64,000 bases of DNA from a virus (Duplodnaviria; Caudoviricetes), in the IMG/VR virus record IMGVR_UViG_3300030095_006840, positions 39,159 to 103,158 of that record; one strand, given 5' to 3'. Positions within the stretch are counted from its first letter, which is position 1. The number at the start of each line of letters is the position of its first letter. Positions 33,078 to 57,606 of the stretch are shown here, piece by piece. The translations under genes were made by a program, and so were the position numbers. The notes under the pieces were generated by a model. The model was not told the DNA's origin and made no database searches. It was given only the letters and a program-made list of their open reading frames with translations.

Positions 33078-34880
33078 ATGACAAGAAAAAAACAATATCC
33101 CGCAATCAAGTACACATCCAGAGACTTTAATAGCATCAAGCAAGACTTGGTGGAATATGCTAAGAGATATTATCCTCACACATTTAAAGATTTTAGTGAA
33201 TCGGGCTTCGGCTCCATGATGCTTGATACGGTGGCTTATGTGGGCGACATTCTTTCATTTTACTTAGATTATGAAGTCAATGAAACTTTCTTGGATACAT
33301 CCATCGAATATAATAATGTTTTAAGACTTGGAAAACAAATGGGCTTCAAATTTAAGGGAGTGCCCATTTCCCGAGGTCTGGCAGAAATGTTTATAATTAT
33401 CCCAGCAAACTCTCGCGGAGATCAGCCAGATCCGGATTACATACCTATCCTTAAAAAAGGAAGCGTGTTTTCATCTGATGATGGGATCGCATTTACACTC
33501 AATGAGGATGTAAATTTTGCAGATCCTGACAACGAAACAGTTGTTGCGGCAGTTAATTCTGATAATGGAAACATTATTTCATACGCAATCAAGGCAGTGG
33601 GCGAAGTAATTTCAGGACAAAGATATGAAGAAAAGGTCATTGTTGGAGATTTCCAAAAGTTTTTACGAGTAAAACTAGCTGGCTCAAATATTTCTGAAAT
33701 TTTATCGGTTGAAGATGATCTTGGGAATGAATATTATGAAGTCGATTATCTTTCTCAAGATGTTGTTTATCGAGATTTAATTAACAATGGAGCTAATAAA
33801 AAAACAACACCAAATGTTTTGAGGCCATTAGCAGTCCCCCGAAGATTCACATCAGAGCTTATGGAAGGTGAAACCTATTTACAGTTTGGTTTTGGTTCTG
33901 AAAAAGACGTTACAGTAGATCCACTTTTGGATCCGAGCAAGACTATATTAAAAGTTCATGGAAAAGATTACTTTTCTGATGTTTCTTTTGATCCATCAAA
34001 TCTTGTAAGTACGGATAAATTTGGAGTTGCTCCGAGTAATACAACCTTGACAATAGGTTACTTAGCGAATACTTTATCAGAAGTCAACATCGCAGCCGGT
34101 GGTTTATCAAATGTTGTTGGTCCCCTGTTTGAATTTGGGAACATTAATACTTTGGTAAATTCAAAAGTTTCGGATGTTATTAATTCAATGGAAGTAAACA
34201 ATCAAGAAACCATCACAGGGGATGTCACCTATCCATCTATTGATGAATTGAAAGAACGAATATATAATGTTTTTGCATCTCAAAATCGAGCAGTGACAGC
34301 ACTAGATTACAAGTCAATGTGCTATGCAATGCCTACAAAATATGGAGCGATTAAGCGAGCAAATGTGATAAAAGATCCGGGCTCACTTAAGAGGAATCTG
34401 AATGTTTATGTTTTATCTGAAGATGTAGATGGTAATTTTATAACTGCAAACTCTACGATAAAAGAAAATTTAAAACACTGGCTAAATCAAGGTAGGATGA
34501 TAAATGATACGGTTGATATTATAGACGCAAAGGTAATAAATGTCGGCATCGAGTTTGATGCGATTTCAACTCCCGAATCAAACCCATTTGAAGTTCTTAA
34601 TGAGGCTGCGGCGAGTTTAAGTGTTTATTATGAAAGAAAGTTTGAAATTGGTGAACCTTTCTATATAGGGGAAATATTCTCCCACTTGAATCGTTCGCCT
34701 GGGATTTTAGACGTAACCCGCGTAAAGGTTACACAAAAAACAGGTTTGGGGTATTCAAACAGCGTCTTATTTAATGTAGATGACAATATGTCGGTAGATG
34801 ATCGCTACATTGTGGTCCCTAATAATGCAGTTTTAGAAATCAAATATCCATCACAAGATATTAAAGGAAGTATTCGATAA
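33078..34880 (+). CDS. Baseplate wedge protein, T4 gp6/baseplate J-like
   Basis: YTSRDFNSIK…DFSESGFG…AYVGDILSFYLD…ETFLDT, LQFGFG, SQNRAVTALDY. Confidence 0.88.
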   Translation: MTRKKQYPAIKYTSRDFNSIKQDLVEYAKRYYPHTFKDFSESGFGSMMLDTVAYVGDILSFYLDYEVNETFLDTSIEYNNVLRLGKQMGFKFKGVPISRGLAEMFIIIPANSRGDQPDPDYIPILKKGSVFSSDDGIAFTLNEDVNFADPDNETVVAAVNSDNGNIISYAIKAVGEVISGQRYEEKVIVGDFQKFLRVKLAGSNISEILSVEDDLGNEYYEVDYLSQDVVYRDLINNGANKKTTPNVLRPLAVPRRFTSELMEGETYLQFGFGSEKDVTVDPLLDPSKTILKVHGKDYFSDVSFDPSNLVSTDKFGVAPSNTTLTIGYLANTLSEVNIAAGGLSNVVGPLFEFGNINTLVNSKVSDVINSMEVNNQETITGDVTYPSIDELKERIYNVFASQNRAVTALDYKSMCYAMPTKYGAIKRANVIKDPGSLKRNLNVYVLSEDVDGNFITANSTIKENLKHWLNQGRMINDTVDIIDAKVINVGIEFDAISTPESNPFEVLNEAAASLSVYYERKFEIGEPFYIGEIFSHLNRSPGILDVTRVKVTQKTGLGYSNSVLFNVDDNMSVDDRYIVVPNNAVLEIKYPSQDIKGSIR

Positions 34881-55737: not shown

Positions 55738-57606
55738 ATGCCTTATTACAAGTTCGGCCAGAACGACATTTTTCATAATCGAATTGAGACTTATCCAGAA
55801 GCAAGTTTCATCCTCTATGACAATCAAGTGTTTTATAAAAATACTGGCGAAGTAACGGGAGCATTTACAACAAATGTTGGTCATGTTCCTGTTGGATATA
55901 TCAGTTTATATGAACTAAATGTTGACCGACCATCAGGCCAACTTATTTATCCGTTTATCACAAAAGACGGCAGCTTAACAAGTTTTAGTACAACTACCAC
56001 ATCAAAATTTAATTCTGATTTTACTTTTGGTGAAACAATCACCGGCTCTTATCCGTTGTCGGCGAGCATCACATCGACCAGATATGCCACAGGAGCATCT
56101 CGCCCAAAAATTAAAGCCTTGCGAAACGCTTTAGACTCTTACAAGATTTTAAATAGCGATTATGCTTACAGCTCAAGTGTTGGCAACAAAGAAACTCAAG
56201 AGTTAAGGCTAATAAGTATACCGTCAATTTTTTATGGTTCTTCAATTAAAAAAGGTTCTGTTTCGTTAAAATTCTATGTTAGTGGTTCTGAGATCGCTGA
56301 ACTAAAAGACGATAAAAAGAATGGTCAACTGAGACAGGTCAACGATACAGTTGGAACTGTTGCCTATAGCGACCTTTACGCATATTATAAATTTGATGAC
56401 ACCCTATCCGATGGTGATTGGGACACCACTGATGTCCTTTTGGATTCCATGGGTTCTTATAATGCCACTCCTGGTGGGAATGATATAGAACAAGGTGTCG
56501 GTAAATTTGTTTCTGCTTCAGCGTTCGGCCCCCAAGCGAACGCGGATTATTTCAAAATGAATAGCATCCCCATCACTGGCAGTACCACTCCTGGTGGTGG
56601 CTTTTCGGTAAGTTGTTGGGTTAAAAAAGCTTTTGATTCTTCGGGTAATAACGACGATGTTACAGTTGTGGGATGTAAGAATGGCTTGGTGGCGTGGAGA
56701 TTGTATTATTCAGATTGGAATCAAAATAAGGCAACGTGGTACGTCCGCGATGTGGGCGGCAACACTCGATATTATACGTCTTCGGTTTCTAGCACCACTG
56801 ATGACTGGCTGCATTTCGTAGGAACATATCAGGCAAATACGGAGCCTAAGTTGTATGTTAATGGAAAGTTGCAATCTGATGCTGGAATCCAGGTAAAAAT
56901 TGGTGCAACAATGGGAGAGTTAAGCAGTGCCACAGCAAGATTAAGAATTGGTGGGGATTTTACCTCTGACGATCATATGAGTGGCTCCTTAGATGACTTA
57001 CGTTTATATAAAAAAGTTTTATCGGAACATGAGATTAAAACAATATACGATGCCTCTAGTGCTGGCTCTGAAATTCTTGCGTCAAGCGGCTCAGTTGCTG
57101 GTGTTGCCATGTATGATCAAGGTTTTATCATTTTAACGGGAAGTTGGGACTTGGCAGAACACACGGAAGGTTACTACAATCACCCAACCCTAACTAAACC
57201 GCGATGGATTGATTTTGGAACGCTAAACCAATACACTACAGGATCAGCCTTCAAAATGGAATTCAGTGGAACAAATTATGTTCCAGTTACTACCATGATG
57301 GCACACGCTCCGCGAGGAGAACTCAATTACTCATCTAATCCCACTTTTGTAAAGTATGGAGAAAATATTGGTGGAACCACAAGTTCTGCACCAAACGTTT
57401 ATATCGAAAGCGATGGAGTATCGATGGCAAATGTTGTCAGCAGCTCTTATGCAGGTGTCGATGCCTCTTTCCAAAAAACAACTTTTATTAATTATGTTGG
57501 CATTTATGATGAATCAAAAAATTTAATTGCAATCGCAAAATTAGCAAATCCAGTACGCAAAAGAGAGGAAGACGATTTTACATTTAAATTAAAATTAGAT
57601 TTTTGA
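55738..57606 (+). CDS. Virion structural protein, paralog of 54602 with an inserted LamG domain
   Basis: SIKKGSV, LNYSSNPT, FINYVGIYDESKNLIAIAKLANPVRK…KLKLDF. LamG insert: AYYKFD, FSVSCWVK, WLHFVGTY, LYVNG, GSLDDLRLYKKVLS. Confidence 0.7.
   Translation: MPYYKFGQNDIFHNRIETYPEASFILYDNQVFYKNTGEVTGAFTTNVGHVPVGYISLYELNVDRPSGQLIYPFITKDGSLTSFSTTTTSKFNSDFTFGETITGSYPLSASITSTRYATGASRPKIKALRNALDSYKILNSDYAYSSSVGNKETQELRLISIPSIFYGSSIKKGSVSLKFYVSGSEIAELKDDKKNGQLRQVNDTVGTVAYSDLYAYYKFDDTLSDGDWDTTDVLLDSMGSYNATPGGNDIEQGVGKFVSASAFGPQANADYFKMNSIPITGSTTPGGGFSVSCWVKKAFDSSGNNDDVTVVGCKNGLVAWRLYYSDWNQNKATWYVRDVGGNTRYYTSSVSSTTDDWLHFVGTYQANTEPKLYVNGKLQSDAGIQVKIGATMGELSSATARLRIGGDFTSDDHMSGSLDDLRLYKKVLSEHEIKTIYDASSAGSEILASSGSVAGVAMYDQGFIILTGSWDLAEHTEGYYNHPTLTKPRWIDFGTLNQYTTGSAFKMEFSGTNYVPVTTMMAHAPRGELNYSSNPTFVKYGENIGGTTSSAPNVYIESDGVSMANVVSSSYAGVDASFQKTTFINYVGIYDESKNLIAIAKLANPVRKREEDDFTFKLKLDF

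Follow-up and report, generated by a model that had tools for sequence, protein, structure and literature searches.

A short, ordered tripeptide, [S/T]-[G/A/S]-S (SGS, TGS, SAS, TAS, SSS or TSS), occurs three to five times more often than expected in four virion proteins of an uncultured marine phage of the Far-T4 type. The phage is represented by a 103-kb viral contig (IMG/VR record IMGVR_UViG_3300030095_006840), and the analysis centres on its 3′ 64 kb (positions 39,159 to 103,158; hereafter the window). An initial annotation had noticed the tripeptide by eye and read it as an O-glycosylation sequon on exposed tail proteins, served by a 20-kb glycan island in the same window. We find that the excess is selective, specific to the ordered pattern, conserved among relatives and still being added to, and that it is co-distributed with two adjacent genes for glycosyltransferases (GTs) of family GT4, here called GT4-A and GT4-B. 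That the tripeptide is the acceptor tag for a cytoplasmic O-glycosylation primed by this GT4 pair is a proposal from sequence to which we give roughly even chances.

The tripeptide is selectively enriched in four virion proteins

Motif counts were compared with whole-protein shuffles, 20,000 each for the 510-aa, 370-aa and 622-aa proteins (p510, p370 and p622) and 5,000 for the 3,174-aa protein (p3174). In p510 there are 15 motifs against 2.9–3.0 expected and in p3174 there are 40 against 14.9, and no shuffle of either protein reaches the observed number (0/20,000 and 0/5,000). For p622, 13 motifs stand against 3.7 expected (2 of 20,000 shuffles reach 13), and for p370, 7 stand against 1.8 (37 of 20,000 reach 7), such that the four proteins together hold 75 motifs where 23.3 are expected. 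The excess persists when shuffling is restricted to blocks of 15 or 30 residues. Enrichment was found in none of the 41 other open reading frames (ORFs) of the window and in none of the 39 ORFs of the upstream 39 kb of the same contig. The selectivity first seen by eye thus survives shuffling, and the hand counts of 15, 40, 7 and 13 were reproduced exactly. Among the motif-poor proteins used for comparison, the early counts held for the gp6-like protein (0), p1071 (0) and p1103 (1); the protein given as 2,675 aa with about three motifs has 2,689 aa and four. The expectation of about two guessed for p510 was slightly low, while remaining, like the shuffled value, far below the 15 observed.

An unbiased scan over all exact tripeptides ranked TGS first (19 against 3.1 expected, z 9.3), with SAS and SGS also high. 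The pattern has a direction: TGS occurs 19 times and SGT 5 times, TSS 11 times and SST 3 times. As the initial annotation had described, the motifs are isolated, dispersed along the proteins and often preceded by a hydrophobic residue, position −1 being hydrophobic at 40 of the 75 sites against 23.6 expected (p 7e-5). Hydrophobic flanks also occur at −2 and +3, and acidic residues are scarcer near motifs than in the background (6.8% versus 10.4%). These flanks bear on an analogy drawn earlier with the Ser-Gly attachment sites of animal proteoglycans. The xylosylation sites of proteoglycans are flanked by acidic residues; here acidic residues are depleted and the flanks hydrophobic, and the analogy fails. 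The 75 sites are encoded by 70 distinct 9-mers with ordinary codon usage, indicating that selection acts on the protein and ruling out a motif at the DNA level.

The motif is conserved in relatives and continues to be gained

In IMG/VR, 202 relatives of p510 were found (41–75% identity), and all 80 of the 80 that were retrieved are enriched, with 7–18 sites each (z 2.3–8.4). As a family, p510 shows a 4.13-fold ratio of observed to expected motifs with 19 conserved motif columns (63 homologues), and the p3174 family a 3.21-fold ratio with 43 conserved columns. The p622 and p370 families are enriched 4.45-fold (n = 72) and 3.69-fold (n = 74), and the family of a further tail-module protein, p363, 2.3–3.1-fold. 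By comparison, the families of gp6 (0.36-fold), p1071 (0.50-fold), gp25 (0.60-fold), p2689 (0.62-fold), p1103 (0.90-fold) and p329 (0.95-fold) are not enriched. This split between enriched and non-enriched families is kept in 60–78 marine relatives (about 70 genomes).

Twelve matched control patterns run on the p510 and p3174 family alignments gave ratios of 0.17–1.57 with 0–8 conserved columns. The excess is lost if the last Ser is replaced by Thr, Asn or Gly, if the first residue is replaced by Asn or Gly, or if the middle residue is charged, Pro or hydrophobic. Within the p510 family several positions are nearly invariant (S268-S-S in 61/63 homologues, T455-G-S in 62/63, G89 in 63/63), and in the two families motif residues are more conserved than other Ser, Thr, Gly and Ala residues (0.65 versus 0.49 and 0.46 versus 0.31). 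When the conserved motif columns were masked, a 1.73–2.00-fold excess was left, compared with 0.17–1.35-fold for the controls, indicating that sites continue to be gained. These results point to a set of fixed sites plus an ongoing surplus of lineage-specific ones. Literature searches returned neither a published description of the motif nor proteomic results for this clade.

One complete, motif-rich relative (G004) carries further motif-rich ORFs outside its baseplate cluster. One at 5869–6924 encodes 351 aa with 8 motifs against 1.7 expected, and a 1,309-aa ORF at 118352–122281, weakly matching a tail-fibre family of PHROGs, has 26 against 9.5.

The enriched proteins share only small pieces

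For most of the enriched proteins, no function could be assigned from PHROGs or Pfam. The AlphaFold2 model of p510 (mean predicted local distance difference test score, pLDDT, 85.9) is a chain of beta-sandwiches, with predicted domains resembling a carbohydrate-binding-module jelly roll and Ig/FN3 folds. Only 20% of the motif residues in this model belong to strands, compared with 34% of residues overall; most are in ordered segments outside them. About 6 of the 15 sites come at the end of a strand or immediately after one, several being at predicted strand-to-loop junctions. For p370 the model is poor, with a pLDDT of 59 that drops below 50 at the conserved termini, probably due to an obligate oligomeric state. 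A LamG/ConA-like domain occupies residues 279–434 of p622 and is joined to a C-terminus of the p370 type.

In profile comparisons the p510 and p3174 families showed no homology to each other, and neither contained internal repeats detectable at that level. What the enriched proteins have in common is limited to a LamG-like piece (p3174 residues 267–360 and p622 residues 348–434) and a C-terminal module of about 110 residues in p370 and p622, which is conserved across the clade. Since the excess occurs in proteins without mutual homology or repeats, it is not the signature of a shared or repeated domain, and that explanation was ruled out. The C-terminal module, which spans window positions 55400–55714 in p370 and 57250–57606 in p622, is also found in at least seven fibre-like proteins of Flavobacterium phage immuto and Microcystis phage Mel-JY01 and in an ORF of Rhodothermus phage RM378 (116276–117526); it may be a conserved attachment or trimerization domain of Far-T4 fibres.

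Two interleaved proteins of the same module behave differently. For p1071 no homologue was found, even in relatives whose flanking genes are 45–58% identical, and G004 holds an unrelated 979-aa ORF in its slot; in p1103, conservation is limited to the C-terminal third. Both look like hypervariable host-range cassettes free of the motif. The earlier claim that the motif marks exposed tail proteins in general must therefore be narrowed, as these two, probably host-range, proteins are not enriched.

The motif excess is co-distributed with a GT4 pair

The nearest cultured relatives are immuto and Mel-JY01, whose gp6 is about 32% identical to that of the window and in which the gene order of the baseplate module is kept. 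Both carry GT4-A and GT4-B and show a strong, selective excess: enrichment is seen in the protein after gp6 (369 aa in immuto), in a protein of some 1,300 aa and in the fibres or spikes (60 motifs versus 20 in the 1,053-aa immuto tail spike), whereas gp6 and gp25 show none. Their post-gp6 proteins are remotely homologous to p510 and to residues 460–1156 of p3174 (HHalign 96–99%). The p510 homologues of immuto and Mel-JY01 have 7 and 6 motifs; at this distance roughly half the motifs still occupy ancestral columns, the others lie elsewhere, and the density remains about five-fold.

T4, cyanophage Syn1 and LR756511 have neither GT4-A nor GT4-B and no motif excess. In T4, gp5–gp12, wac, gp34–gp38 and the head and tail proteins show none despite similar Ser/Thr/Gly content, and the 3,274-aa giant that follows gp6 in Syn1 has 11 motifs against 12.1 expected; profile comparison found no homology between the T4 or Syn1 proteins and the enriched proteins. 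A generic property of phage fibres is thereby ruled out. LR756508, a 484-kb uncultured phage, has GT4-A without GT4-B and a motif excess that is absent to weak. Its 420-aa post-gp6 protein is a clear p510 homologue (HHalign 97.4%, nearly full length), as distant as those of immuto and Mel-JY01, with 1 motif against 0.5 expected, and its 1,400-aa p3174 homologue has 6 against 2.5. The motif-poor p510 homologue indicates that the fold itself does not require the motif. RM378 carries GT4-A and a marginal GT4-B in which the EX7E motif is degenerate, and its motif result is ambiguous: two adjacent ORFs are enriched (z 4.5–4.9) and the homologue of the p370 C-terminus is not.

Across 50,697 phage records, homologues of GT4-B were found only in immuto and Mel-JY01; those of GT4-A were found also in LR756508 and RM378. 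The two genes are adjacent in the phage studied here, in G004, in immuto and in Mel-JY01, and the tandem pair is present in 5/5 of the long relatives first examined. In a search for natural loss within the clade, GT4-A was present in 28/31 long relatives (56–71% identity), including all five that are at least 90% complete, and the three absences are fragments of 43–61% completeness. GT4-A is thus a core gene of the clade. Just two of the 89 contig ORFs, GT4-A and p370, have detectable counterparts in all three of G004, immuto and RM378. Both GT4 proteins keep EX7E and have no membrane segment; against PDB and NCBIfam they gave only generic GT4 hits, far below cut-offs. The best relative of solved structure for GT4-A is the chlorovirus GT B736L (PDB 3oy2, E 3e-10), a weak similarity. 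Here GT4-B is a fusion of Pfam GT4 and GT2 domains of 678 aa. A second relative (G002) has a 677-aa ORF at the matching place, and GT4-B stands alone in G004 (423 aa) and immuto (436 aa).

The remainder of the glycan island does not follow the motif. Beside the GT4+GT2 fusion, Pfam searches identified a nucleotide-diphospho-sugar transferase, a GT47-like protein, an FkbM methyltransferase and other methyltransferases, an AsnB-like amidotransferase, a DHDPS/NAL-like aldolase, KdsA, a CMP-sugar synthetase, two PhyH dioxygenases, an aminotransferase, HAD phosphatases, a cupin, GDP-mannose 4,6-dehydratase (GMD) and an epimerase/reductase. Neither Wzx, Wzy, an ABC exporter nor an initiating phosphoglycosyl transferase was among the Pfam hits of the island. 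Of 25 island genes, only GT4-A and GT4-B, the first two at its 5′ edge, are common to the motif-rich G004 and immuto, with GMD also in G004; apart from these three, the bulk of the island has no homologues in G004, immuto or RM378. The GT47-like gene, which had been tied to the motif as an exostosin-like enzyme, is absent from all three, as is the ulosonic-acid module, and no GT47-type enzyme is therefore distributed with the marked substrates as in the proteoglycan pathway. The island bulk, GT47-like gene included, was rejected as motif-linked because it is not shared by motif-rich genomes. The idea that the whole 20-kb island serves the sequon is thus not borne out, and the expected co-occurrence of motif and GT island in relatives holds for the GT4 pair and not for the remaining genes.

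A role of the GT4 pair in DNA glycosylation was also considered. A ThyA-type pyrimidine hydroxymethylase (PF00303), a feature of T4-type DNA glycosylation, is missing from four 100%-complete close relatives, which argues against T4-style modification of DNA by the GT4 pair and makes this role unlikely.

Several observations were made around these genes. A PIN-PhoH fusion and a PD-(D/E)XK nuclease lie directly 5′ of the GT4 pair (contig 33960–35282). In LR756508 the order from PD-(D/E)XK nuclease to GT4-A is kept and GT4-B is not next; at 299000–313000 of that genome (L198), genes for a cytidylyltransferase and a sialyltransferase-like GT29 come after GT4-A, and a gene of the thymidylate-synthase family lies upstream, a sugar toolkit unlike that of the clade studied here. 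In immuto, a 373-aa hypothetical protein encoded between head-completion and structural genes (MW353176 135031–136152; L117 7032–8153) has 17 motifs against 3.0 expected (z 8.5), and the tail sheath is mildly enriched (10 versus 3.8), such that the marked set may reach beyond the baseplate.

A candidate tag for O-glycosylation of peripheral virion proteins

The motif is a strict, ordered tripeptide, present in unrelated proteins and in a stable subset of the virion, conserved yet still gained, and, in a relative without GT4-B, missing from a protein of homologous fold. These properties suggest a tag read by a trans-acting factor, and a post-translational tag, as first suggested, is the best single reading for peripheral virion proteins. 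The GT4 pair provides the only enzyme candidates distributed with the motif, which favours glycosylation by that pair; that the tag serves glycosylation in particular is a conjecture we would put at about one chance in two. According to this proposal, (hydrophobic)-[S/T]-[G/A/S]-S-(hydrophobic) would single out a defined set of proteins of the peripheral baseplate and fibres for modification in the host cytoplasm, either before the tail is assembled or while it is. The likeliest modification would be O-glycosylation on a Ser or Thr hydroxyl. Priming would fall to the conserved, soluble GT4-A and GT4-B, with GT4-B, or the two acting together, as the motif-linked element, and the strain-variable island (window 1358–20198) would supply nucleotide sugars and the transferases that extend and diversify the glycan.

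Several observations weigh against this proposal. It is from sequence patterns and gene distribution that we infer, for every member protein, that a modification occurs, that it is a sugar, which residue would carry it and that the GT4 pair would write it. The link between GT4 genes and motif comes from few lineages and is confounded by the shared descent of the baseplate module: LR756508, the key contrast, is a single case, RM378 is ambiguous in its degenerate GT4-B, its two enriched ORFs and its unenriched homologue of the p370 C-terminus, and the T4 and Syn1 negative controls are not homologous to the enriched proteins. The hypervariable p1071 and p1103, presumably the most exposed proteins, have no motif excess. 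The GT4 proteins match generic GT4 models only, and the usual acceptors of soluble GT4 enzymes are lipid-linked or small molecules. Many sites, moreover, are fixed, well ordered and accompanied by a near-invariant Gly (q88, q455, q468), which gives them a structural look; a phage GT is the most plausible writer of the tag, with the GT4 pair as candidate, but these sites would also fit a structural role.

Such a role, as a clade-specific structural or assembly motif without covalent modification, is the main rival reading and seems to us less likely than the tag, if well worth keeping in mind. Here (hydrophobic)-[S/T]-small-Ser would end a strand, start a tight loop or make hydroxyl-mediated contacts between subunits, and would have come down with the peripheral baseplate module of Far-T4 phages, purifying selection maintaining it. 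It would explain why many sites, near-invariant Gly included, are fixed in families at about 45% identity, why motif residues are predicted in ordered, confidently modelled regions, frequently where a strand passes into a loop, and why immuto and Mel-JY01, whose enriched proteins are remotely homologous to p510 and p3174, have about half of the motifs of those proteins on ancestral columns; it also gains from the non-homology of the T4 and Syn1 controls and from a comparative signal mostly confounded by common descent. However, a structural motif accounts poorly for an excess in several families without detectable homology or repeats, for a preference for Ser over Thr, Asn or Gly at position 3 that is unusually strict for a turn, for the excess left outside conserved columns, for a clear p510 homologue without motif excess in LR756508 and for neighbouring virion proteins at or below expectation. 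Were the motif purely structural, it would still be a strict three-residue, clade-specific rule operating in unrelated beta-rich proteins.

We consider it improbable that the tag is read by another trans-acting factor, for phosphorylation, acylation or recognition by a phage chaperone or assembly factor, with the GT4 pair serving elsewhere, for example in modifying the host envelope. The motif does behave as a short linear tag in unrelated proteins, the generic matches and usual acceptors of GT4 enzymes suit such a division of labour, and common ancestry by itself could account for the matching distribution of motif and GT4 pair. On the other side, no kinase, acyltransferase or chaperone distributed with the motif was identified, without a systematic search; GT4-A is the only enzyme among the 89 contig ORFs conserved across G004, immuto and RM378; and GT4-B tracks the excess both across the phage collection and in the comparison with LR756508. 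Finally, that the excess is a compositional or statistical artefact, produced by Ser/Thr/Gly-rich proteins and a pattern picked by eye, is almost certainly wrong. The four motif-rich proteins do contain somewhat more Ser and Thr than neighbouring proteins, yet the composition-preserving whole-protein and local shuffles, the first rank of TGS in the unbiased scan, the lack of excess in reversed patterns and in the 12 matched control patterns, and the T4 and Syn1 proteins of similar composition rule out an effect of composition or low complexity.

Comparison with known glycosylation systems

Chloroviruses encode soluble GTs and carry glycans at unconventional acceptor sites on their capsid proteins. 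The candidate system resembles them in its virus-encoded, soluble GTs and in having virion proteins as candidate acceptors; it differs in that chloroviruses infect eukaryotes and attach their glycans through N-linkage, and B736L resembles GT4-A only weakly.

In mycobacteriophages, phage-encoded GTs glycosylate virion proteins (Freeman et al. 2023, Cell Host Microbe 31:1216, cited in PMC12619734), and according to PMC12619734 the glycans are placed, on chemical evidence, at the C-termini of capsid and tail-tube subunits. The likeness is that a glycan coat would come from phage GTs acting in the cytoplasm on structural proteins of their own phage. In contrast, the sites here are tripeptides scattered through the folded baseplate and fibre proteins of marine myoviruses, not placed at C-termini of capsid or tail-tube subunits, and the candidate writer is an unrelated GT4 pair known from sequence alone.

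GtfA and GtfB prime the serine-rich-repeat adhesins of Gram-positive bacteria; GtfB is a non-catalytic chaperone, and DUF1975 mediates pairing and substrate binding (review PMC6973325). Like that system, the phage has two adjacent GT4-type genes, whose products would act in the cytoplasm on Ser or Thr in Ser-small-Ser contexts, and a conserved pair stands beside variable extension enzymes, as the rest of the island varies here. Unlike it, the phage pair has no DUF1975 in the Pfam search, both proteins keep EX7E and look catalytic, single tripeptides within folded beta domains take the place of long low-complexity serine-rich repeats, and no SecA2/Y2 export system is present. Aah and TibC, bacterial autotransporter heptosyltransferases (BAHT), modify the autotransporters AIDA-I and TibA and recognize a strand-loop-strand element, according to PMC3835316 (citing Charbonneau et al. 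2012). Cytoplasmic O-glycosylation at many dispersed Ser/Thr of a beta-rich protein would be a common feature, and an acceptor at the start of a loop may resemble the hydrophobic −2/−1/+3 flanks and the predicted strand-to-loop position of several p510 sites. The differences are a BAHT heptosyltransferase there and GT4 enzymes here, and a strict tripeptide here where no sequence consensus is known for that system. The phage system is thus a member of neither the GtfA/GtfB nor the BAHT family.

A broader proposal is that phages of the Far-T4 type carry out clade-wide virion O-glycosylation, with a sequon primed by GT4 enzymes and strain-variable islands building different glycans. We advance it more tentatively, on sequence patterns, at somewhat under even chances. 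If true, the host-contact organelle of these phages would bear a ‘serotype’ layer, and the motif would be the first sequence-defined O-glycosylation sequon in a tailed phage, a short signal that predicts modified virion proteins from sequence alone. Phage virion glycosylation would then reach past the capsid and tail tube of mycobacteriophages to baseplate and fibres and would cover an abundant group of aquatic myoviruses. It would also explain large strain-variable islands for sugar synthesis without exporters, and the resulting coat could affect host recognition, particle stability and escape from recognition by hosts or grazers. The proposal would be testable in three cultured systems, immuto, Mel-JY01 and RM378.

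Gene order and neighbouring features

Every gene of the window lies on the + strand (Table 1). The tail module runs in the order gp25, gp6-like protein, p510, p3174, p363, p1071, p1103, p329, p370 and p622.

Table 1. Positions of the genes and regions discussed, in window coordinates unless a contig position is given.
Feature	Position	Strand	Remarks
GT4-A	window -2021 to -654; contig 37137-38504		455 aa; directly upstream of GT4-B
Sugar-metabolism (glycan) island	1-20198	+	Pfam
GT4-B, 3′ two-thirds	3..1361	+	gene start 675 nt before window; contig 38483-40519
Variable glycan island	1358..20198	+	nucleotide-sugar synthesis, tailoring enzymes, more GTs
GT47-like gene	4535-5353	+	in island
p2689	from ATG at 24551	+	2,689 aa; tripeptide count 4
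gp25	32665-33054	+	start of tail module
gp6/J-like wedge protein	33078..34880	+	tripeptide count 0; internal negative control
p510	34880..36412	+	first protein after gp6-like wedge; motif-rich
p3174	36417..45941	+	giant baseplate or fibre protein; motif-rich
p363	45938..47029	+	2 motifs versus 0.7 expected here
p1071, p1103 and p329 together	47029..54591	+	interleaved virion-module proteins without motif excess
p1071	47029-50244	+	
p1103	50248-53559	+	
p370	54602..55714	+	fibre-like; motif-rich
p622	55738..57606	+	fibre-like; motif-rich

On the 3′ side of p622 follow a primase and then a fused Mre11/Rad50-like protein. In this protein, a single 1,038-aa ORF at window 59954–63070, an Mre11-like phosphoesterase domain and a Rad50/SMC-like ATPase domain are joined, corresponding to a fusion of gp47 and gp46.

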